Below the pieces are notes generated by a model. The model was not told the origin of the DNA. It did not search any database and was given only the letters and a program-made list of their open reading frames with translations. The position numbers were made by a program, and so were the translations under genes. Source: Candidatus Elulimicrobium sp. (lineage in GTDB: Bacteria > Patescibacteriota > Minisyncoccia > Phycocordibacterales > UBA918). From it: a stretch of DNA of 64,000 nucleotides. The stretch lies in assembly GCA_020720815.1 (NCBI GenBank), contig DYNY01000003.1, positions 1,002 to 65,001 on the forward strand. The letters run 5' to 3'. Numbering within the stretch: the first letter of the stretch is position 1; each line of letters starts with the position of its first letter. This document shows positions 1,713 through 13,497 of this stretch, piece after piece.

Positions 1713-3212
1713 TCACTTCTTCCGCATCAGCTCCGTGACCGGCTCGATCTTACCGGCGGTGAGGCTGAATACGGAATAGCGGTCCTCGTCACCGGCCTTG
1801 GGGCACATTGCGAGCGTACCGCTGTTGAGGCCGTGGTCGCGCAATGCACGGATGCCGTCCATGTTGGCCACCACGATGACTTCCTCCATCTCGCCCTTGA
1901 CGGGAACCGTCAGAAACGAAATGGATTGGGGAGCCATTTTTGCCGTGTTGGTGTGGGACAGAGAAGGTTCTCTGGTCACCGCGGTGACCGCTTGGCGAAC
2001 CTTCCTCGCGCCATCCTTCTTCACCATGAAGGATTCAATCAGTTCCCCGACCTCACCCGTCTTGGTGTTGTAGGAAGTGACGGAGATGCAGAAGGCGCCG
2101 TGTCCGAGCATCAGCCACTCATCGCCGACGACCGGATAGCCGTGACGGCGATCGCCCGAGAGGGTGTGTGCGAAGATGCGCTTGCGACCGGCGATTTCCG
2201 CCCGCTTGGCATCCCGCTCCGCTCGGCGCTTGGCACGCTCTTTTTCAGCGACAGCTTCTTCTTCCATCTTGGCCGCTTGACGTGCTGCGGTCAAGGTTTT
2301 GTTGATGGCTGTGCGAAGTGTTGCCTCGCGTTGCGACCAAATTGGCTCGAGGCCCTCGGCCTGCGCGATCAGTTCCTTCAGTGCGACGAGGTCCTTCAAC
2401 TTGCGACCGCCGATGGATTCACCACCGATGCGTTGACGATGGGAGAGATCCCGTACAGGCACCACTTCGCAGAGGCTCTGCTTGGTCGAGATCATGATGA
2501 CGAGTTCGTCACCGACCTCGCGCAGAAACGCCATCCCGGCAAAACCGTAGTTCTTGTACTCCTTTCCAAAGGACCACATTTCCTGGCCGTCAAAGACGAC
2601 TTGGGCAGGGAGGAACTCGGCATGAGGAGCGGCACGCGGAGATCTCAACTGCTCGATCCTGAAACCCTCGAAGAGGGTGGTTTGCAACTGAAAACCCTTG
2701 CTGTCGGTCTTCTCATCGATGATTCGTTTGTTCAAAAGTGGTGAGAAATGCCCTGCGTAAGAGATTTGTAATTCAGGTAGTGCCCAATCTGTACCTCTTA
2801 CTTTTCCTCGGCAGTTTTTAGCACCACAATGACAATCCCAACTTGATATGTAGTCTTCTCGTGCTTCCCAGAGGGCATAGTCAGCTAAAAGCTCTTCACC
2901 AATAGAAATGTTTCTCCGTGCAATAAGGGTGAAGGCGTCGTCCATCCACACATTTGGGTCGCATGAGTGATTGATAAAGTATGTATCATCTTCACCTCTA
3001 TCCTCTACACTGTATAAGTCATTGTCCCATTGCAGTATGAGTTTTTCTTCTTGCACTGCACGCTCAGCTTCTTCCTTATGTACATATTTACCACCCCACA
3101 CAAGCACTTTCTCACCTAAACAGATTGGACTTGTTGCAAACATTCCCTTACCACCAATCTCGGAGGCTTTGATTTCAATGTTTGGATGTATCCAAGACTG
3201 CGTAGGTATCAT
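1713..3212 (-). CDS. SET-domain (lysine-methyltransferase-like) protein fused to a C-terminal ~345-aa domain encoded by a GC-rich block
   Basis: The N-terminal 150 aa carry the SET hallmarks (…YFINHSCDPNV…, GEELLADY, post-SET CHCGAKNCRG). The remainder, 1713-2750, lies in >60% GC DNA with high GC3 in this frame and includes a charged coiled-coil (KMEEEAVAEKERAKRRAERDAKRAEIAGRKR). Confidence 0.6.
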   Translation of the reverse strand: MIPTQSWIHPNIEIKASEIGGKGMFATSPICLGEKVLVWGGKYVHKEEAERAVQEEKLILQWDNDLYSVEDRGEDDTYFINHSCDPNVWMDDAFTLIARRNISIGEELLADYALWEAREDYISSWDCHCGAKNCRGKVRGTDWALPELQISYAGHFSPLLNKRIIDEKTDSKGFQLQTTLFEGFRIEQLRSPRAAPHAEFLPAQVVFDGQEMWSFGKEYKNYGFAGMAFLREVGDELVIMISTKQSLCEVVPVRDLSHRQRIGGESIGGRKLKDLVALKELIAQAEGLEPIWSQREATLRTAINKTLTAARQAAKMEEEAVAEKERAKRRAERDAKRAEIAGRKRIFAHTLSGDRRHGYPVVGDEWLMLGHGAFCISVTSYNTKTGEVGELIESFMVKKDGARKVRQAVTAVTREPSLSHTNTAKMAPQSISFLTVPVKGEMEEVIVVANMDGIRALRDHGLNSGTLAMCPKAGDEDRYSVFSLTAGKIEPVTELMRKK

Positions 3213-3448
3213 AAAAACTACTTAGAATACACACTTTGGGGTACCTTCCAATAGGTTACTTTGCAGTCTCAGTCGGGAATGTATCAGAGCAGGTGGTCAA
3301 AGAATACCTGGAACATCATTTCAGCGACGAGGATGAAGCTGATGATGCGTTCAAGATACAACCCTAACGTTTGACTTCAGTCAGCGAAGCACTCTGTGCG
3401 CTTCAGCGCACAGAGGTTGAAATTTTTAATAGTATGTACTTAGATACA

Positions 3449-5062
3449 TTATGAGTTCATAAGTGGAAAGAGGTAAGCATACCCTTCTTTTTCCATATTA
3501 CTTTGTGAAATAAAACGGAGTGATGCAGAATTCATACAATATCGCTTACCACCCCTATCTGCTGGCCCATCATCGAACACATGCCCGAGATGTGAGTCAG
3601 CAAAGCGCGATCGGACTTCAGTTCGCTTTGTAAAGAGTGTACTGTCTTTGTGTAGCACAACTGCGTCATCCGTAATCGGTTTTACAAATGACGGCCACCC
3701 GGTGCCAGAGTCATATTTATCCTTTGAGAAATACAACGGTTCCCCCGATACAATGTCTACATAGATTCCCTCAACATCATTCTTATCATACTCGTTCTTA
3801 AATGGCGTTTCGGTTCCATCCTCTTGTGTCACCTCATACTGAATTGATGTGAGGCGAGCACGAAGAACTTCAGGGGAAGGCTTCATAAAACTTTGCCAAG
3901 AGTTTTCTTTGGAAGTTATAGTACTTGATCCTGGTTCAGTCCATATACTCGGAGTAACAAACGTATTTGCGGAATCGCCCCAATATTTTTTAATAAATGT
4001 ATCTCTTCCTGAGGCAGTGCGATATAAGTTGTACCGAACTGGATTCTTCTCAGAATAATCTTGATGATATTCTTCAGCTGCCCAAAATGGTACTCGCGGA
4101 GTGACCAGAAGCGGCAATGGATTAGGAAATGTACGAAGTGCATCAACCGTGTCAATGATCCGACGTGCTTCAATCTTTTCGATATCATTTTCGTAGAATA
4201 TTGCTGGTGCATATTCTTTTCCTCGATCACCGAAGGATCCTTCCGCGTCCGTTGGGTCACCGTGTTTAATGATATGTTCGACGAGGTTCCCAAATGTTAG
4301 GGTATTTGCATCATATGTTACCAACACTACTTCACGATGACCACCTTCCTCATAATTCTTATAGGTAGGATTCTCGGTAGACCCGCCCGCGTATCCCGAC
4401 ACTACATCAATAACCCCTGTAACTTCTTCAAGATCATGCTCCACGCACCAGAAACATCCGTTTGCAAGTAGAGCAGTCTTTTTCGACATCTCGTAATTTT
4501 GTTGTCCTGTGGTGGTGCTAGGAATTGGTATTTCGGCGGACTTGCTCATGTCATCACCGTCTTGCATAGAATCTTCAACACTCAATTCGTTTGAAGTTAA
4601 TCCACTAATACTAATGTCCGCGTAGTTAAACAAAACACCAAACTGTTTACACCACGTCATCACGTATTTATAATCAGAAATATCTACCTCTGCAGGAATA
4701 ATGTAGTTGATATTACCCTCTGTGCCACGTAGCTCCCCAAGACTCACAAACTCCTTACCTTCAAGATCTTTGCTTAAATATACAAATAAATCTGGGCCAT
4801 TGATTGTCTTGAAATTTTCATAACAAATAGTTTTTCCTTCCGGAGAATCAATGAGTCTTACGGTTCCTTCAGCTGGATGCCCAACTGTACCCATAACAGG
4901 ATAGCTCTCAACAATCATGACCTCGTCTTTACTACTAGAAACACTTAGCATTACTGGGGCTTCTTCGTTAAGTGTAACTGTTTTAAAGGTTGGAGAGATG
5001 GTGTAATAACCAAAACCGATGAGCACCGTGGCGACGACTGCAATAATTATTTTATTTAACAT
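3449..5062 (-). CDS. msrAB: Membrane-anchored/secreted DM13-MsrA-MsrB fusion (peptide methionine sulfoxide reductase A/B)
   Basis: N-terminal TM helix. DM13-like segment (…[37 protein letters not shown]…). MsrA motif GCFWCVEH…YAGG…NPTY. MsrB motifs (…GWPSF…HLGHVF…, CxxC pairs). Confidence 0.8.
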
Positions 5063-5086
5063 ATACTAATAAGTATATACAAAACA

Positions 5087-5119
5087 AGGAGAATGTAAAG
5101 TTAACTTTACATTCTCCTT
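5087..5119. promoter_or_regulatory. Perfect 33-bp palindrome containing TGTAAAG-N4-CTTTACA, a candidate operator and/or terminator
   Basis: aaggagaatgtaaagttaactttacattctcctt lies between the stop of the DUF2178 gene and the start of msrAB, 25 nt upstream of the msrAB start codon. Confidence 0.5.
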
Positions 5120-5134
5120 AGAGGATAACTCTTT

Positions 5135-5497
5135 TTATCGATTTTTGTCGCTCCAGATGCGCGTAGCAATCTTTGCAACAATCATCACGACCAGCGAAAC
5201 AACGAGCCACGGGTCGACGGTATGTGTATACCCCTCTACAACAATACCCAGAATGAGAAGAGCAGAACCTGCAAGAAATGCGTTTCTCCCCGCAAGGGTC
5301 TCATGCACAGCATCTCGTTCGTCAACAGTCTTCTCACGTAAAATAAAACTTGCAAATATTCCAAAGAGTACTAGTGTGAGAACAAGCATACCCACAACCA
5401 TCATGTCGGGCATCCAAAAGTCAAAAGGATTGAGAAGTAGCACAGCAATAAGTATCAGAAGTAGGGTAGTAAATATTTCAGAAAGATTATTTTTCAT
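5135..5497 (-). CDS. DUF2178-like small polytopic membrane protein, partner of the adjacent XRE regulator
   Basis: Four predicted TM helices. The start is taken at MKNNLSE…, with the ORF track starting 8 codons earlier at 5521. It overlaps the XRE gene stop by a few nt, which is the typical XRE-DUF2178 operon layout. Confidence 0.55.
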
Positions 5498-5699
5498 ACG
5501 ATATGGTAAATAGTTTCTCAACAGACACTTTGAAAAAGTGCGCTATCTTGAGTGCTAATAAAATTGACGGCGTGTAGTTACCTTTTTCAAGCGCAATGAT
5601 AGTCTGACGACTTACGCCCACTGCGCGCGCAAGATCTTCTTGGGTGATTCCTAAATTCACCCGGTAATCAGGTACTTTATTTTTTATACTCTCCTGCAT
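5487..5699 (-). CDS. XRE-family helix-turn-helix transcriptional regulator (70 aa)
   Basis: HTH_3 signature …[49 protein letters not shown]. Confidence 0.8.
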
Positions 5700-5730
5700 A
5701 GTAATATATGTTATAGAGTTTTGATGAGTA

Positions 5731-5748
5731 TGTAAAGTTTTCTTTACA
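5731..5748. promoter_or_regulatory. TGTAAAG-tttt-CTTTACA palindrome in the divergent XRE/msrB intergenic region, a candidate operator
   Basis: Same half-sites as the 5087-5119 palindrome. A third, imperfect copy aGTAAAG-taga-CTTTACa sits at 5825-5842. Confidence 0.45.
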
Positions 5749-5955
5749 CGGGATCACTTGCTTATTGAACTACGTCGTTTACTTACGACAGGGTAGTTCA
5801 ATTGGTCGTTGCAAAAGTTTTAAAAGTAAAGTAGACTTTACATCGGGAAGTGTGAAATTGTAACAATAGTAAAGAAGTAAAAAATAATTAGTATAACCAA
5901 AGTTTCAAAATTATCTTTGACTTGATTGTGTTTATCTATATTAAATCCCACCCGT

Positions 5956-6360
5956 ATGATATCTGACGAACAATTGAAGAAAGTTAACCCCGAATTGTAT
6001 AAAATTGCTCGAGAGGGTGGTACCGAAGCCCCACACTCCAGCGATCTGTTGTATGTTGACGATAATGGAACTTTCCACTGCGCAGTTTGCAACGCGCTGC
6101 TATTTGACTCGGAAACTAAGTTTGATTCCGGATCAGGTTGGCCCTCTTTTACAGATCCAATAAATAAAGAGGCCGTCACCCTCATCCATGATCATAGTCA
6201 TGGGATGCGAAGAACAGAAGTCCGTTGCAGTAATTGCAAGGCGCACTTAGGGCATGTCTTCCCTGATGGTCCAGAACGAACCGGTGGTGGAGAAAGAGAC
6301 TTTGGGCGTCACAATCGATATTGTATCAATGGCATTTCGCTTGAAATGCATAATAAATAA
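5956..6360 (+). CDS. msrB: Peptide methionine sulfoxide reductase MsrB (SelR)
   Basis: CAVCNALLFDSETKFDSGSGWPSF…CSNCKAHLGHVF, the Zn-binding CxxC pairs and the catalytic region. The start is taken at MISDEQ, while the track ORF begins 10 codons upstream. Confidence 0.85.
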   Translation: MISDEQLKKVNPELYKIAREGGTEAPHSSDLLYVDDNGTFHCAVCNALLFDSETKFDSGSGWPSFTDPINKEAVTLIHDHSHGMRRTEVRCSNCKAHLGHVFPDGPERTGGGERDFGRHNRYCINGISLEMHNK

Positions 6361-6363
6361 TTT

Positions 6364-6861
6364 ATGTCACAAAATTACAAAAAGGCTGTGGTGGCAGGGG
6401 GTTGTTTTTGGGGACTTGAAGACTTACTTCGAACACAGCCTGGCATTGTCGAGACTGAGACAGGTTATGCTGGCGGAAAAAATGCTAATCCGACATACGA
6501 ATCTCACCCAGGTCATGCTGAAGCCGTGGAAATTACTTACGACCCTTCAGTTACCGCCTACAAAAATATTCTTGACTTCTTTTTTCAAATCCATAACCCA
6601 ACAACTCTAAATCAGCAAGGAAATGATAAGGGTACTTCATACCGTTCTACAATCTTTTTCGCCACTAAGGAAGAAAAAGATACGGCGGAAGAGATGATAG
6701 GTATTGTAAATGAGTCTGGTCGATGGAATGAGCCTGTTGTCACAACACTTGAGCCGCTGACACGTTTTTGGCCAGCTGTAGATTATCACCAAGATTATCT
6801 ACAGAAGAGTCCTGGTGGTTATACGTGCCATGCCATATATTTTGATAGCTATCTGCAGTAG
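6364..6861 (+). CDS. msrA: Peptide methionine sulfoxide reductase MsrA
   Basis: AGGCFWGLE…GYAGG…NPTYE…HAEAV, the canonical MsrA active-site region. Confidence 0.9.
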   Translation: MSQNYKKAVVAGGCFWGLEDLLRTQPGIVETETGYAGGKNANPTYESHPGHAEAVEITYDPSVTAYKNILDFFFQIHNPTTLNQQGNDKGTSYRSTIFFATKEEKDTAEEMIGIVNESGRWNEPVVTTLEPLTRFWPAVDYHQDYLQKSPGGYTCHAIYFDSYLQ

Positions 6862-7185
6862 TAACTACACACTATATTTTTACCCTAAAATAAGATTCTA
6901 AAAAACAAACCCAAAATCCTCACTAGGGAAACGTTTGACTAGAACCAAAATGTCCCCTGTTTAGGGGACATTTTGGTGTTTTTATATTCTGGGCGACGTC
7001 GTAGAGAAAGTTAGAGTGTGTTTGATTGTTTGAGTGATTTGAGTGTCTATATTCCAGTGTTTAGTACAATACTGAATAGATTACCCTTGGCAATCCGCAT
7101 GGACTATCTTTTGTTGAGAGAAGCAACAAAATCATCTACTGTTTCAAAAACCTCTAGCTCTCCATCCTCAAAAGACTATTCAGCG

Positions 7186-7803
7186 TCACTTCATTTTAAA
7201 TGAAGTGAGCATTCTATCGTATATTTTTGTTGGTAATGTCCATGTTTCATCTCCTCCAAACTTTTCAAAACTGAGTCTATATATAGTATTTCCGTACCCA
7301 ATGAAATAATCATAGTTTAAGTCGGTCGTGATAATTTTGTACGCCGTGTACCCATTTACCTCGGTTTCCTCTGCACTCGCAACAATCGTGTTTGGGTATG
7401 GATAGATACCGTCGCTTTGGACTCGCGACTCTCTCAGATACCAATCCTTCGGGCTGAGTTTTTTTAGGTTCTCATACACGTGCACTGTCATTGAGGTCAT
7501 CTGTTCTTCTCCTCTTGAACTTTTTCCGTTTGTGAAAAAAGTCATTTCTATGCTCTCTGAAATTTCTTTACCGGTTCCTTCTGCTTTCCATCCGCTGGGA
7601 TATTCAATTTGATACGCATATTTGTAATTTTGATAGACTTTGAAGTCATCTTTTTCTTGGCTACAATTAAAACAGGTTTGAGTAAGTACGTACGCAAGGA
7701 CGATGAAAATCCCCATGACTAATACACCCACGTTCAAGTATCGGAATATTTTTTGACTGTTGCTCATCGATTTATTATCACATATCTCTGATTGAACAAT
7801 CAA
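7186..7803 (-). CDS. Hypothetical membrane-anchored protein
   Basis: N-terminal TM helix (NVGVLVMGIFIVLAYVL) followed by a Tyr-rich extracytoplasmic domain. An alternative start MSNSQK lies at 7767. Confidence 0.45.
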   Translation of the reverse strand: MIVQSEICDNKSMSNSQKIFRYLNVGVLVMGIFIVLAYVLTQTCFNCSQEKDDFKVYQNYKYAYQIEYPSGWKAEGTGKEISESIEMTFFTNGKSSRGEEQMTSMTVHVYENLKKLSPKDWYLRESRVQSDGIYPYPNTIVASAEETEVNGYTAYKIITTDLNYDYFIGYGNTIYRLSFEKFGGDETWTLPTKIYDRMLTSFKMK

Positions 7804-10462: not shown

Positions 10463-11776
10463 ATGGACATTAAAAATATTCGTAAGCGCGATGGTTCGAT
10501 TCAGTCATTCAATATCGATAAAGTGCAAAGTGCTATTTTGAAAGCACTCTACGAGACACAAGAAGGCGAAGTCACTGACGCCAAAAAAGTGGCTGACCTT
10601 ACTTTGCAAAAAACTATTGCCATGTGTACGCAGGCGGTTAATGCTTTGCCAGATGAGCCAGCGGCATTGAAGTGTGTGGATGGGTATCCGGCGGTAGAAG
10701 AAGTACAAGACTTAGTGGAGCAGTCTTTGATGGAACTTAATTACTTTGAGACCGCCAAGGCATATATAATTTATCGTAATAATAGAAAGAAGCTACGTGA
10801 GAGAGATATTTTTAAGGCTCGAGTAAATCTTAAACCATATGAATACCCAGAGCTTTATGAGTATACTAATTCGATTCGACATTCCTACTGGATTCATACG
10901 GAGTTTAATTACACTAGTGACATCAATGATTTTCATGTAAACGTAACAGAGGGTGAACGAGTGGCGATAAAAAATGCCATGCTTGCGATTGCCCAGATAG
11001 AGGTGTCCGTCAAAACTTTCTGGGGTGATATCTACAAAAAAATGCCGAAACCAGAAATTGGTTCAGTGGGGGCTACTTTTTCTGAAAGTGAAGTAAGACA
11101 CGCCGATGCTTACTCCCACTTGTTAGAAATCCTTGGACTTAATCAGGAATTTGAGCGAGTAAAAGATATTCCTGTGATTCAAGAGCGCATCAAGTACCTT
11201 GAGAAAACTATCAAGTTGTCACAAACTGATGAAAATCGTCAATACATGCACTCAGTGCTATTATTTTCATTATTTATTGAGCACGTCTCACTTTTCTCTC
11301 AGTTTTTGATTATTATGTCTTTCAACAAGCACCGTAATATTTTCAAGGGTATTAGTAATGCGGTTGAGGCTACCTCAAAAGAAGAACAAATTCATGGTTT
11401 GTTCGGTATTGATGTGATCAACATTATTAAGAAAGAACATCCTGAATGGTTTGATGAAGCTTGCAAGGATATGATAATTAAAGCTTGTGAAGAAGCTTAT
11501 GAAGCTGAAAGCAAGATCATTGATTGGATTTATGAAGCAGGGGAATTAGACTTTTTACCATCCACAAATGTAAAGGAGTTTGTCAAAAATCGCTTAAATA
11601 ATTCACTAGCATCAATTGGTTTACCGCGTATCTTTGAGGTAAGTGAAGCATTACTTGAAGAAACGGATTGGTTTGATAACGAAGTGATAGCTACCAAGCA
11701 TGTCGATTTCTTTCATAAGCGCTCAATTAATTACAATAAACGCAGTGCGAGTGTGACGAGTGAGGATTTATTTTAA
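10463..11776 (+). CDS. nrdB: Ribonucleotide reductase class I beta subunit (NrdB/R2) with an N-terminal ATP-cone domain
   Basis: ATP-cone (…IRKRDGSIQSFNIDKV…AKAYIIYRNN) followed by a ferritin-like R2 core with iron ligands (…ESEVRHADAYSHL…, …FSLFIEHVSLFSQF…, EEQIHG). Confidence 0.8.
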   Translation: MDIKNIRKRDGSIQSFNIDKVQSAILKALYETQEGEVTDAKKVADLTLQKTIAMCTQAVNALPDEPAALKCVDGYPAVEEVQDLVEQSLMELNYFETAKAYIIYRNNRKKLRERDIFKARVNLKPYEYPELYEYTNSIRHSYWIHTEFNYTSDINDFHVNVTEGERVAIKNAMLAIAQIEVSVKTFWGDIYKKMPKPEIGSVGATFSESEVRHADAYSHLLEILGLNQEFERVKDIPVIQERIKYLEKTIKLSQTDENRQYMHSVLLFSLFIEHVSLFSQFLIIMSFNKHRNIFKGISNAVEATSKEEQIHGLFGIDVINIIKKEHPEWFDEACKDMIIKACEEAYEAESKIIDWIYEAGELDFLPSTNVKEFVKNRLNNSLASIGLPRIFEVSEALLEETDWFDNEVIATKHVDFFHKRSINYNKRSASVTSEDLF

Positions 11777-11808: not shown

Positions 11809-13497
11809 ATGGACTCATGGTACTGGTTGAATGAAAATAGTCTCGGTTTTCTTGCTCGGGGTTATTTAGGGGAAGGACAGACGCCAGAGGAAAGAATTAG
11901 AGTGATTGCTGATACGGCCGAGAAATATCTTGGACGCAAAGGTTTTGCTGACAAGTTTTATAAGTACATGGGTAAGGGATGGATATCTCTAGCTTCACCA
12001 GTTTGGTCAAACTTTGGTAGTACCAAGGGCCTGCCAATTAGTTGTTTTGGTTCTTACATAGCAGACAACATGGGTAGCATTCTTTATTCTAACGCAGAAG
12101 TTGGTATGATGAGTAAGTTTGGTGGTGGCTGTTCTGGATACATGGGGGCACTGCGCGGGCGTGGGTCTAGTATTTCTGATAACGGACAATCTTCCGGCGC
12201 CGTGCATTTTATGCAACTATTTGAAACCTTGGTGGACGTGGTGAGTCAAGGTTCAGTCCGTCGCGGACACTTCTCGCCATACTTACCAGTTGAACACCCA
12301 GATATTTTAGAATTTTTAGACATTGGAACCGAAGGTAACCCAATTCAAAAGTTGACACACGCTGTGACGGTAACTGATAAATGGATGGAAGAGATGGTGG
12401 CTGGTGATAATGAAAAGCGAGCTATTTGGGCACGGGTAATTCAGCGTCGTGGTGAGATGGGTTATCCATATATTATGTTTACCGATACGGCCAACAAAAA
12501 TACCGTTGATGTATACAAAGAAAAAGGCCTCACTATTTATGCTAGTAACATGTGCAGTGAGATTATGTTACCGTCAAACGATGATTGGTCATTTGTCTGT
12601 TGTCTTTCTTCAATTAACCTTCTTCATTATGACGATTGGAAAGATACAGATTTAGTGGAGACTATGATTGCTTTTTTGGATGCTGTGATGGAGGACTTTA
12701 TTGTAAAGCTCGAAGCGATGCGTGATCATAAGGACCCAGAAAAGCGTTTAGGTTTTAGTTTTATGGAGCGAGCTTATAACTTTGCTAAGGCTAACCGAGC
12801 TTTAGGTCTTGGTGTCCTTGGTTGGCATTCACTGTTGCAGGCTAAACAACTAGCTTTTCAAAGCGAAGAAGCGGAAAAGATGAATATCGCAGTTTTCAAA
12901 AACATCAAAGAGCGAGCCACCAAGGCTAGTAAAGATTTAGCGGAAGAGTTGGGTGAACCAGCTGTACTTAATGGTTATGGTCGCCGTAACACCACATTGC
13001 TAGCAATTGCTCCGACCACTTCCTCAGCTTTTATATTGGGGCAGGTATCACAAGGAATTGAGCCAATCTGGTCCAACTGCTACGTTAAGGATGTGGCCAA
13101 GATGAAAGTGACAATCAAAAACCCAACTCTCCAGACTTTGTTGTCGGAAAAAGGAAAAGATACTAAAGTGATCTGGGATAGTATTCGCGATACTGATGGT
13201 TCGGTCCAACACCTCGATTTTTTGACTGACCAAGAGCGAGCGGTTTTTCGTACTTTTTCAGAAATTGATCAAGGAGCGGTGATTAAGCAGGCGGCCGATA
13301 GACAAGTTTATATCGACCAAGGTCAATCATTAAATATTATGGTTGAACCAGATACACCAGTCAAAGATATCAATCAGCTCTATATTCAGGCTTGGAGACA
13401 GGGTATAAAATCCCTTTACTACCAGCACTCGATGAACGCAGCTCAGCAGATGGTGCGCAAGAAGTTGGCCGCTAACGCAAAAGAGGCAGGCAAATAG
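11809..13497 (+). CDS. nrdA: Ribonucleotide reductase class I alpha subunit (NrdA), short form without an ATP-cone
   Basis: Catalytic NMCSEI and SFVCCLSSINL regions, ten-stranded barrel motifs, C-terminal tail. Confidence 0.8.
   Translation: MDSWYWLNENSLGFLARGYLGEGQTPEERIRVIADTAEKYLGRKGFADKFYKYMGKGWISLASPVWSNFGSTKGLPISCFGSYIADNMGSILYSNAEVGMMSKFGGGCSGYMGALRGRGSSISDNGQSSGAVHFMQLFETLVDVVSQGSVRRGHFSPYLPVEHPDILEFLDIGTEGNPIQKLTHAVTVTDKWMEEMVAGDNEKRAIWARVIQRRGEMGYPYIMFTDTANKNTVDVYKEKGLTIYASNMCSEIMLPSNDDWSFVCCLSSINLLHYDDWKDTDLVETMIAFLDAVMEDFIVKLEAMRDHKDPEKRLGFSFMERAYNFAKANRALGLGVLGWHSLLQAKQLAFQSEEAEKMNIAVFKNIKERATKASKDLAEELGEPAVLNGYGRRNTTLLAIAPTTSSAFILGQVSQGIEPIWSNCYVKDVAKMKVTIKNPTLQTLLSEKGKDTKVIWDSIRDTDGSVQHLDFLTDQERAVFRTFSEIDQGAVIKQAADRQVYIDQGQSLNIMVEPDTPVKDINQLYIQAWRQGIKSLYYQHSMNAAQQMVRKKLAANAKEAGK

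Follow-up and report, generated by a model that had tools for sequence, protein, structure and literature searches.

A probable membrane-anchored DM13–MsrA–MsrB fusion and a conserved palindrome, a likely operator, in a Patescibacteria (CPR) bacterium

The locus was analyzed within a stretch of 64,000 nucleotides (referred to below as the window) from Candidatus Elulimicrobium sp., contig DYNY01000003.1, the host being a Patescibacteria (CPR) bacterium. One open reading frame on the minus strand encodes a protein in which a DM13 domain precedes two methionine sulfoxide reductase domains. Its features, with residues numbered along the protein, are as follows.

3449..5062, minus strand: DM13–MsrA–MsrB fusion gene, membrane-anchored product of 537 amino acids (open reading frame; Pfam and NCBIfam domains; at least 57 full-length homologues of the same architecture)
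4997..5062, minus strand: N-terminal transmembrane (TM) anchor, amino acids 1–22, followed by a conserved YYxxSPxF motif (hydropathy; AlphaFold2)
4616..4906, minus strand: DM13 domain, amino acids 53–149, eight-strand β-barrel
4649..4651, minus strand: codon of Cys138, in a WCK motif; DM13 has no other invariant reactive residue
4496..4600, minus strand: linker between DM13 and MsrA, amino acids 155–189, disordered and non-conserved (pLDDT below 50; family columns without conservation)
3965..4483, minus strand: MsrA domain, amino acids 194–366, with GCFWC (Cys203 catalytic, Cys206 resolving; PF01625, TIGR00401)
3458..3901, minus strand: MsrB domain, amino acids 388–535, with catalytic Cys509 in RYCMN (PF01641, TIGR00357; motif census)
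3392..3415, minus strand: GC-rich hairpin, CTCTGTGCGC-TGAA-GCGCACAGAG, without a U-tract, 34 nt past the fusion stop codon (read from the sequence)

A sequence-only reading of this DNA had proposed a TM anchor, DM13, MsrA and MsrB in this frame. All four were found, the domains scoring above curated cutoffs, and every motif it quoted was present (a DM13 segment at amino acids 61–97, GCFWCVEH at 202–209, GWPSF at 455–459 and HLGHVF at 491–496). The Pfam DM13 profile (PF10517), against which it had suggested a search, matched amino acids 61–149 with 60.1 bits (cutoff 25, E 3.6e-16) over model positions 6–104 of 105, and no thioredoxin (Trx) family, a match that would have spoken against the reading by its own account, was matched in amino acids 1–190. 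For MsrA, the scores were 149.1 bits with PMSR PF01625 (cutoff 23.7; amino acids 196–345) and 123.3 with TIGR00401 (cutoff 108.1); for MsrB, they were 153 bits with SelR PF01641 (cutoff 24.9; amino acids 404–518) and 192 with TIGR00357 (cutoff 113). Cys203 and Cys206 (GCFWC, amino acids 202–206) were invariant across 78 aligned homologues, as was RYCMN with Cys509 among aligned homologues. Judged by its motifs, the fusion MsrB is of the 1-Cys, Zn-less type: it reads GTGWPSF rather than the GCGWPSF of the 2-Cys, Zn-binding class and has zero CxxC motifs in the domain, the only CxxC of the whole protein being the CFWC of MsrA.

Hydropathy analysis gave a single hydrophobic segment, at the N terminus (amino acids 1–19), and AlphaFold2 placed a helix at residues 2–22 (pLDDT about 91). 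This single segment, and MsrAB moieties fused to the C terminus of CcdA in relatives, argue for enzyme domains on the extracytoplasmic side; such a location is likely, and the protein is very probably an exported MsrAB. The YYxxSPxF motif after the anchor is kept in DM13–MsrAB fusions and also in a separate DM13 protein from a related locus (L010). In the full-length AlphaFold2 model (pTM 0.46), no interface between DM13 and the Msr domains was predicted. The hairpin downstream of the gene was not picked out by the terminator scan; from its sequence, it is a possible 3′ end of the transcript.

Upstream of the fusion gene lie four further genes and three copies of a palindrome.

5094..5111, no strand: operator copy 1, TGTAAAGTTAACTTTACA, centre of a 16-bp palindrome, its right arm being the −35 box of the fusion promoter
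5135..5497, minus strand: gene for a four-TM protein of 120 amino acids, in translational overlap with the HTH gene and conserved beside it
5487..5699, minus strand: gene for an Xre-family HTH regulator of 70 amino acids (PF01381 HTH_3, 57.9 bits), which always heads the cluster
5731..5748, no strand: operator copy 2, TGTAAAGTTTTCTTTACA, an exact match overlapping the −35 box of the HTH promoter
5825..5842, no strand: operator copy 3, AGTAAAGTAGACTTTACA, with 1 mismatch, in the divergent region towards the cytoplasmic msrB
5926..6360, plus strand: cytoplasmic msrB, Zn-binding type with two CxxC motifs, probable start at 5956 (PF01641, 146 bits)
6364..6861, plus strand: cytoplasmic msrA, GCFWG type (PF01625, 190 bits)

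The divergent msrB–msrA pair begins 864 nt from the fusion start codon and corresponds to the second, cytoplasmic pair that the sequence-only reading had placed 0.9 kb away; no N-terminal hydrophobic stretch was visible in either protein when the sequences were read by eye. The four-TM protein matched no Pfam or NCBIfam family, is kept beside the HTH gene in 29–30 open reading frames across related loci and has the invariant motifs FWMPxM, E..DER and H..DPW. A partner electron donor in the neighbourhood, which had been suggested as something to look for, was not found: no CcdA, Trx or TlpA gene is encoded within the 64-kb window.

The conserved palindrome, TGTAAAG-N4-CTTTACA, is a new finding. 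The fusion gene, the Xre-HTH/four-TM pair and the cytoplasmic msrBA pair each have it overlapping their −35 box. The fusion promoter has its −35 box, TTTACA, at 5099–5094 and its −10 box, TATACT, at 5077–5072; the promoter-like site of the HTH gene reads TTTACA-17-TAACAT (5736..5708). An initial scan had flagged the palindrome at 5120–5085 as an intrinsic terminator; it was re-read as an operator because it overlaps the −35 box and because conservation between loci extends to its sequence, beyond the mere ability to pair. The site occurs in the same position at related loci L001, L003, L005, L006, L008, L010, L011 and L012. Three sites were found in the window, all at this locus, against 0.40 expected, and three were reached in 0/100 shuffles. 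In 1.78 Mb of related loci, all 34 of 34 exact copies precede trx, msrAB, DM13-msrAB, HTH, ccdA::tlpA or DM13 genes. With good confidence, these genes can be taken as a regulon defined by the operator. The 70-amino acid Xre-HTH protein is presumably the repressor that binds it, a candidate chosen from adjacency only.

With the HTH and four-TM pair at the head of the regulon, and with invariant Met/His/Trp motifs in the outward loops of the four-TM protein, DM13 could be imagined as a signalling accessory: it would inform the four-TM protein about oxidants or the redox state outside the cytoplasm, and the four-TM protein would control the Xre repressor. The model for such a role (cf. SaeP/SaeQ/SaeS) is Staphylococcus aureus SaeP, a DM13-like lipoprotein that joins a membrane protein and a sensor kinase in one complex (PMC7189620). 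We regard this as highly improbable: many HTH-TM-headed operons lack any DM13, and the four-TM protein is not DoxX-like.

A survey of DM13–Msr fusions, again an earlier suggestion, found the fusion in at least 57 protein clusters, every named one of which belongs to CPR, bacteria with highly reduced genomes. DM13 was absent from 61 of the 120 closest homologues, and nearly all the full-length proteins among these 61 begin with a TM anchor and a low-complexity linker ahead of MsrAB. In a quick neighbour-joining (NJ) tree of the Msr moiety, DM13 presence was patchy and the largest pure fusion clade held 10 of 60; non-monophyly of the fusions is tentative because the tree carries no support values. 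One homologue (P0049) has a 252-amino acid N-terminal extension in the place of DM13, in which no Pfam domain was matched.

The genes around the fusion and around separate DM13 genes were then compared. Orthologues of the fusion at L007 and L009 stand in the order HTH-TM-Trx-CcdA-TlpA-[DM13-MsrAB]-VTT-Pyr_redox, whereas the minimal fusion operons (the window, L005 and L008) have no adjoining Trx or CcdA. Besides the minimal fusion operon at L008, the metagenome-assembled genome JBKJIT01 contains a full Trx/CcdA::TlpA operon that ends in a separate DM13 gene (L010). When the best 120 CcdA::TlpA homologues were compared with fusion-bearing genomes by indirect matching, 0 were paired. CcdA itself takes several forms: in related loci its C terminus bears TlpA/ResA domains (DipZ-like), and MsrAB is fused to the C terminus of a six-TM CcdA in continuous open reading frames of 616–660 amino acids at L014, L017, L020 and L021 (close homologues). 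By phmmer, single open reading frames of 601–630 amino acids at L094, L113 and L134 matched CcdA, MsrA and MsrB, as judged from the matches and not from reading the sequences. At L001–L004 and L006, the fusion is followed by a gene whose MerT-like product, a membrane protein, has a CC pair and is no true MerT (34 bits against a cutoff of 150).

For separate DM13 genes, 43 loci could be evaluated, each offering 3 kb or more of upstream sequence, and at nine of these (21%) DM13 is the last gene of a Trx-CcdA::(TlpA|MsrAB) operon, against about 1–2% expected by chance for thiol-redox operons, itself a rough estimate. Of the closely related DM13 genes that stand alone, about 80% lack the operator and lie beside unrelated housekeeping genes. 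This last observation, together with the patchy distribution, would suit a redox-inert DM13, either a spacer or a surface, cell-wall or ligand-binding β-sandwich that positions MsrAB, with the cysteine being structural. A low-complexity spacer of 40–100 amino acids occupies the same place in MsrAB-only relatives; DM13 relatives elsewhere are found together with fn3, Ig-like and glycosidase-associated modules, the company expected of a generic surface domain; and insect DM13 proteins (Knickkopf) organize chitin and cuticle (PMC4140639). We nevertheless hold an inert role to be fairly unlikely. A lone, absolutely invariant extracytoplasmic cysteine would be unusual if purely structural, the frequency of separate DM13 genes in thiol-redox operons exceeds the estimated chance level, and an isolated DM13 gene at L109 bears the regulon operator.

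The predicted structure of DM13 is all-β, an eight-strand barrel that is SOD-like and not thioredoxin-like. Searched by sequence against the PDB, the DM13 segment gave nothing meaningful, and Foldseek against the PDB gave no significant match (E at least 0.23). Resemblance to Cu,Zn superoxide dismutase barrels (Bacillus subtilis YojM, PDB 1s4i) is one of fold only, with about 12% identity; homology was rejected because the six-His/Asp site that binds copper and zinc is absent from DM13, whose single His is H62. Cys138, in a WC motif, is shared by 58/58 fusions, 21/21 diverse DM13 relatives and 90% or more of the 149 cluster representatives. With one invariant cysteine, DM13 alone could not perform dithiol–disulfide exchange. 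The idea that it supplies the resolving cysteine missing from MsrB was also considered; there was no covariation, and MsrAB-only relatives also read GTGWPSF. It can still be entertained, since some MsrAB-only operons hold separate DM13 genes. The electron-transfer function attached to DM13 is a contextual prediction (Iyer, Anantharaman and Aravind 2007, as cited in PMC7189620).

The sequence-only reading had cast DM13 as the electron-delivery domain of the fusion, in the position of the PilB thioredoxin domain, so that electrons would pass from a membrane donor through DM13 to MsrA and MsrB. Its placement between anchor and MsrA matches that of the thioredoxin domain in PilB, its cysteine is invariant, the minimal operons lack an adjoining Trx or CcdA, and the MerT-like CC-pair protein could be pictured as the donor. 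The single invariant cysteine, with no CxxC-type dithiol, and the all-β, SOD-like fold instead argue that DM13 is no replacement for the PilB thioredoxin, as do anchored sister MsrABs that manage without DM13 and the Trx, CcdA and TlpA genes retained beside the L007 and L009 fusions. The MerT-like gene is found after MsrAB genes without DM13 as well and is therefore no DM13-specific partner, and the predicted model shows no interdomain docking. Direct electron delivery by DM13 is accordingly improbable. The broader proposal, that DM13 is tied to extracytoplasmic methionine sulfoxide repair, is borne out by the recurrent fusion, by separate DM13 genes in Trx/CcdA/Msr operons and by the shared operator, and a literature search gave no paper joining DM13 and Msr, in line with the novelty claimed for the link.

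Taken as a whole, the account that we consider probable on balance is that of an anchored extracytoplasmic MsrAB with its reductant supplied in trans, DM13 as an accessory and a shared operator. MsrA (Cys203/Cys206) would reduce Met-S-sulfoxide, and the Zn-less 1-Cys MsrB (Cys509) Met-R-sulfoxide, in surface-exposed proteins. Cytoplasmic reducing power would be delivered by a CcdA/DipZ-type membrane thiol–disulfide transporter and anchored Trx/TlpA-like proteins, by analogy with the orthologous loci; because none of these is encoded in the window, they would act in trans, which by the same analogy seems rather likely. The operator over each −35 box would coordinate the fusion gene, the Xre-HTH/four-TM pair and the divergent msrB–msrA pair. 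What the sequences show directly is the motifs and domain order of the protein, the recurring fusion, the gene contexts and where the operator lies; the topology, the electron route and the identity of the repressor are what we infer from these.

The DM13 barrel, on its flexible linker of ~35 amino acids, would be an optional accessory module and no thioredoxin substitute. As for its biochemical role, we infer, tentatively, that DM13 works through its thiol as a partner or client of the pathway that reduces MsrAB, the likeliest role because one cysteine is its only invariant reactive residue. Cys138 might serve the 1-Cys MsrB as relay or resolving thiol; alternatively, it might react with oxidants, with Trx/TlpA keeping it in the reduced state. 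A more specific version makes DM13 a single-cysteine redox module, fused or separate, in which Cys138 serves as resolving or relay thiol for the MsrB sulfenate, possibly for other clients too, and is recycled by CcdA/DipZ-Trx/TlpA. We think this version unlikely; if true, it would be the first biochemical function for DM13 and would bear on Skeletor/Knickkopf and S. aureus SaeP.

The "electron transfer" label of DM13 has been contextual since 2007; its recurrence in thiol-based extracytoplasmic repair makes a vague annotation experimentally addressable. To our knowledge, gene regulation and envelope physiology are barely characterized in CPR/Patescibacteria, for which the locus offers a probable oxidative-damage regulon over two compartments, with its operator defined and with candidates for both the repressor and a membrane sensor.

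Among known systems, the Neisseria PilB-type Trx-MsrA-MsrB protein (NCBIfam PRK14018; PDB 1l1d and 3bqe are relatives) is an exported single chain, as the fusion very probably is, in which a further N-terminal domain precedes MsrA and then a Zn-less MsrB. The two reductase parts of the fusion align with its model at 314.9 bits, below the cutoff of 522, and only amino acids 183–532 are covered. The two differ in the N-domain (DM13 rather than a CxxC thioredoxin fold), in the fusion MsrB, which lacks the resolving cysteine, and in the fusion MsrA, which is of the CFWC type. Animal Skeletor/Knickkopf DM13 domains (PF10517) share the Pfam score above gathering, the conserved cysteine of the family and, probably, an extracytoplasmic location, but here there is no DOMON partner and the context is thiol–disulfide/Msr rather than heme/cytochrome b561. 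S. aureus SaeP (SaePQRS) is also bacterial, with a membrane-tethered extracellular DM13-like domain and an adjoining small multi-pass membrane protein and oxidative/neutrophil-stress regulator; unlike the fusion, it carries no enzyme, and its partners are the DoxX-like SaeQ and a histidine kinase.

DipZ-type CcdA::thioredoxin fusions resemble the related loci in which TlpA/ResA-like domains are fused to the CcdA C terminus and which probably conduct electrons for the regulon; none lies in the window, and some relatives carry MsrAB as C-terminal passenger in place of the Trx-like domain. The closest precedent is provided by CcdA-Etrx-MsrAB pathways, which have been studied experimentally (PMC3914529, PMC7034828, PMC9239216). 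As in Streptococcus pneumoniae CcdA-Etrx-MsrAB2 and the msrAB loci of S. gordonii and Fusobacterium nucleatum, the MsrAB is surface-exposed and membrane-associated (predicted here), and in related CPR loci it is co-encoded with CcdA, exported thioredoxin-like proteins and a dedicated regulator. In the window, by contrast, CcdA and Trx are not adjacent and a DM13 domain is added; regulation would involve an Xre-HTH/four-TM pair and a palindromic operator in place of a two-component system, and related CPR loci add optional MerT-like or VTT and FAD-oxidoreductase genes downstream.

The domains of the fusion protein are listed below, with residue ranges from an AlphaFold2 model built with a 78-sequence alignment and the cysteines that are invariant in 58 fusions.

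3449-5062, minus strand: DM13-MsrA-MsrB open reading frame, 537 amino acids
Residues 2-22: transmembrane (TM) helix
Residues 53-149: DM13 domain, with Cys138 in a WCK motif
Residues 155-189: disordered linker
Residues 194-366: MsrA domain, with Cys203 and Cys206 in a GCFWC motif
Residues 374-381: disordered linker
Residues 388-535: MsrB domain, with Cys509 in an RYCMN motif

Every motif named in the sequence-only reading of this tri-domain fusion was found in the frame. Its assignment of the N-terminal domain also held: Pfam placed DM13 (PF10517) at residues 61-149 (60.1 bits, above the cutoff of 25), PMSR/MsrA at residues 196-345 (149 bits) and SelR/MsrB at residues 404-518 (153 bits), and a thioredoxin-like N-domain was looked for and not found. 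The protein passed the NCBIfam domain equivalogs for MsrA and MsrB, scored 315 bits against the full-length PilB-type model PRK14018 (cutoff 522) in an alignment beginning only at residue 183, and contained a single hydrophobic segment, at its N terminus. Mean pLDDT was 87.5, with confident domains; the pTM of the full model was only 0.46, and therefore no fixed packing between DM13 and the enzyme is predicted. Exactly four cysteines were invariant across the 58 fusions, and Cys80 was found in the window sequence alone among them. The MsrB domain carries GTGWPSF, without the resolving cysteine, and lacks the zinc CxxC pairs; covariation of resolving-cysteine loss with DM13 gain was ruled out, since MsrAB-only relatives also carry GTGWPSF.

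Homologues of the fusion protein were searched for among about 5.8 billion proteins. The DM13-MsrA-MsrB architecture was present in 59 of the best 120 matches (identity 50-99%), and the source names of these were all Candidatus Kaiserbacteria, Pacebacteria, Parcubacteria or Paceibacteria (Patescibacteria/CPR); public databases name such proteins by automatic MsrA/MsrB annotation. The other 61 were MsrA-MsrB without DM13; in nearly all full-length examples the N terminus was a TM helix, with a low-complexity linker of some 30-80 amino acids after it. Anchored MsrAB is therefore the general state of the clade, and in some members DM13 has been inserted between the anchor and the enzyme. In a quick neighbor-joining tree of the Msr moiety (no support values), fusions were interspersed among MsrAB-only and CcdA-fused forms, tentatively suggesting that the N-terminal module is readily exchanged.

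The DM13 segment was run against 1.84 billion cluster representatives in an exhaustive HMMER search, which gave no fewer than 3000 relatives, including 825 with E < 1e-10. Most of the relatives were proteins of 140-250 amino acids that have an anchor, a linker and DM13 at the C terminus, or that carry tandem DM13, and only two of the best 150 representatives were Msr fusions. Across diverse relatives the cysteine of the WC motif was the sole invariant reactive residue (His62 was common; Asp91 and Lys139 were variable). Because of this single invariant thiol, a role for DM13 as a thiol-based partner or client is the most economical hypothesis. That DM13 is instead a structural module is a serious alternative, and a signalling role is possible by analogy with Staphylococcus aureus SaeP, a DM13-like lipoprotein acting with a membrane protein and sensor kinase (PMC7189620).

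When metagenomes were scanned with an alignment of DM13 alone, 79 separate, unfused DM13 genes and one fusion were found. In 9 of the 43 evaluable loci (at least 3 kb upstream), DM13 was the final gene of an HTH-TM-Trx-CcdA::(TlpA or MsrAB) operon, with more partial cases on short contigs; the remaining separate genes had non-recurrent housekeeping neighbours. This share, about one in five, is far above the 1-2% that we roughly estimate for chance; it also means that most DM13 genes are not bound to this Msr system.

Two genes preceded the fusion in L001-L008, which are all the fusion loci with upstream flank captured. Their window copies are as follows.

5487-5699, minus strand: Xre-type HTH gene, 70 amino acids
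5135-5497, minus strand: four-TM protein gene, 120 amino acids, overlapping the HTH gene; no family match

Gene content beyond these two genes and the fusion differed between loci, and only these three core genes were present in the window, L005 and L008. L007 and L009 shared the order Trx-CcdA-TlpA-[DM13-MsrAB]-VTT-FAD/NAD(P) disulfide oxidoreductase, with HTH and TM genes ahead of Trx in L007 and the L009 contig beginning inside the Trx gene. The proposal of the sequence-only reading that DM13 takes the place of thioredoxin as electron donor is the least supported, given one invariant cysteine, anchored MsrAB without DM13, and the adjacent Trx-CcdA-TlpA genes of L007 and L009. In the metagenome-assembled genome JBKJIT01 (Paceibacteria ant_bin.173), two paralogous HTH-TM-headed operons occur: the minimal fusion operon L008, and L010, ordered HTH-TM-MsrAB-VTT-oxidoreductase-Trx-CcdA::TlpA-DM13, whose DM13 is a separate protein of 191 residues that shares the YYxISPxF motif at its anchor. 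They form a natural fused/split pair of DM13 and MsrAB within one genome.

A MerT-like protein (122-123 amino acids; 123 in L001-L004 and L006, where it is added to the fusion locus) has a Cys-Cys pair in TM1 and one loop cysteine, and scored under the cutoffs of MerT models.

L001, 11615-11986: MerT-like gene
L003, 11627-11998: MerT-like gene
L006, 9616-9984: MerT-like gene

The gene also lies 3' of MsrAB in L011, L015, L017, L018, L021, L023, L024, L028 and L036, following MsrAB both with and without DM13; there it appears mutually exclusive with the pair of VTT/DedA and class-I FAD disulfide oxidoreductase (RclA/MerA/Har-like) genes. It is absent from the window.

In several relatives MsrAB was joined to the C terminus of a six-TM CcdA with both canonical cysteine motifs, placing membrane electron conduit and client enzyme in one polypeptide. 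Four such frames (616-660 amino acids) were read in sequence.

L014, 6086-8029: CcdA::MsrA-MsrB
L017, 6230-8080: CcdA::MsrA-MsrB
L020, 6053-8035: CcdA::MsrA-MsrB
L021, 6218-8068: CcdA::MsrA-MsrB

L094, L113 and L134 each contained a single frame of 601-630 amino acids matching CcdA, MsrA and MsrB. Because CcdA C termini in relatives are fused either to TlpA/ResA (DipZ-like) or to MsrAB, MsrAB would act outside the membrane, and these fusions are the strongest argument available here for that location. The anchored thioredoxins at L007 5943-6602 and L010 10313-10957 carry a strikingly Met-rich linker (...MMEKEAMEKAEMMKKEEM...). Its match to the 'pentapeptide MXKDX repeat' model is weak, at 25.9 bits where the cutoff is 41, and it may be a sacrificial methionine sink recycled by MsrAB.

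The hairpin that separates the TM gene from the fusion gene, flagged as a terminator, is a palindrome with the core TGTAAAG-N4-CTTTACA. This core was kept in sequence and position in all loci inspected, regardless of the downstream gene, and its right arm forms a -35-like TTTACA followed in most loci by TATACT after 16-17 nt; on these grounds the terminator reading was set aside. The window copies of this operator and the second Msr pair are listed below.

5094-5111: operator before the fusion gene
5731-5748: operator before the HTH gene
5825-5842: one-mismatch copy of the operator, facing cytoplasmic msrB in the divergent region
5926-6360, opposite strand to the fusion gene: second msrB, with two CxxC zinc motifs
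6364-6861, opposite strand to the fusion gene: second msrA

The additional pair, reported earlier as about 0.9 kb away, lies 864 nt from the fusion gene, and no N-terminal hydrophobic stretch was visible by eye in either protein. A strong intrinsic-terminator-like hairpin (6944-6977, plus strand; 15-bp stem and T-run) 3' of cytoplasmic msrA delimits the divergent msrBA unit.

All three operator copies in the window fall at this locus (0.40 expected by chance), and none of 100 shuffled sequences reached three. The 1.78 Mb of fetched loci contained 34 exact copies, all immediately 5' of thiol-redox/Msr-set genes (trx 14, DM13-msrAB 8, HTH 6, msrAB 4, ccdA::tlpA 1 and, in L109, separate DM13 1), and 15 of 16 one-mismatch copies were likewise upstream of such genes. 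Besides the window, the loci with the operator are L001, L003, L005, L006, L008, L010, L011, L012, L016, L032, L081, L088-L113, L134, L155 and L165. At the promoters of exported msrAB, HTH-TM and cytoplasmic msrBA it overlaps the predicted -35 box, and we infer a repressor-operator regulon that spans the Msr enzymes of both compartments, exported and cytoplasmic, and in which the neighbouring Xre protein binds the operator. Three motifs are invariant in the co-transcribed four-TM protein: FWMPxM and H..DPW lie in loops with a predicted outward orientation, and E..DER has a predicted inward orientation. Speculatively, this protein may sense oxidants through methionine and so control the repressor.

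Other genes of the window were also noted.

1713-3212, minus strand: 499-residue protein, N-terminal SET domain (47 bits), C-terminal ~380 residues without assigned domain; directly 3' of the fusion gene and co-oriented with it; not kept at this position in related loci
7186-7803, minus strand: 205-residue protein, one TM helix followed immediately by a CFNC motif; no Pfam family
10463-11776, plus strand: ribonucleotide reductase small (NrdB-like) subunit, 437 amino acids, ATP-cone (62.6 bits) and Ribonuc_red_sm
11809-13497, plus strand: ribonucleotide reductase large subunit, 562 amino acids, without ATP-cone; in L001 and L003 the ATP-cone is instead on the large subunit (about 970 amino acids)

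In the best-supported reading, anchored extracytoplasmic MsrAB would repair surface methionine sulfoxides and would be reduced through a CcdA/DipZ to Trx/TlpA relay, by analogy with the CcdA/Trx-type relays to exported MsrAB of Streptococcus pneumoniae, S. gordonii and Fusobacterium nucleatum (PMC3914529, PMC7034828, PMC9239216). The relay genes of this genome would be encoded outside the window, and DM13 would be an optional module of the system. As the sequence-only reading had supposed, no paper treating DM13 together with a methionine sulfoxide reductase was found in the literature searched, where DM13 appeared only in insect Knickkopf, SaeP and incidental proteomics. The exported Msr system as such is known; here it has an additional DM13 module, and this module and the regulator-operator pair are previously undescribed features of the exported Msr system of CPR bacteria.
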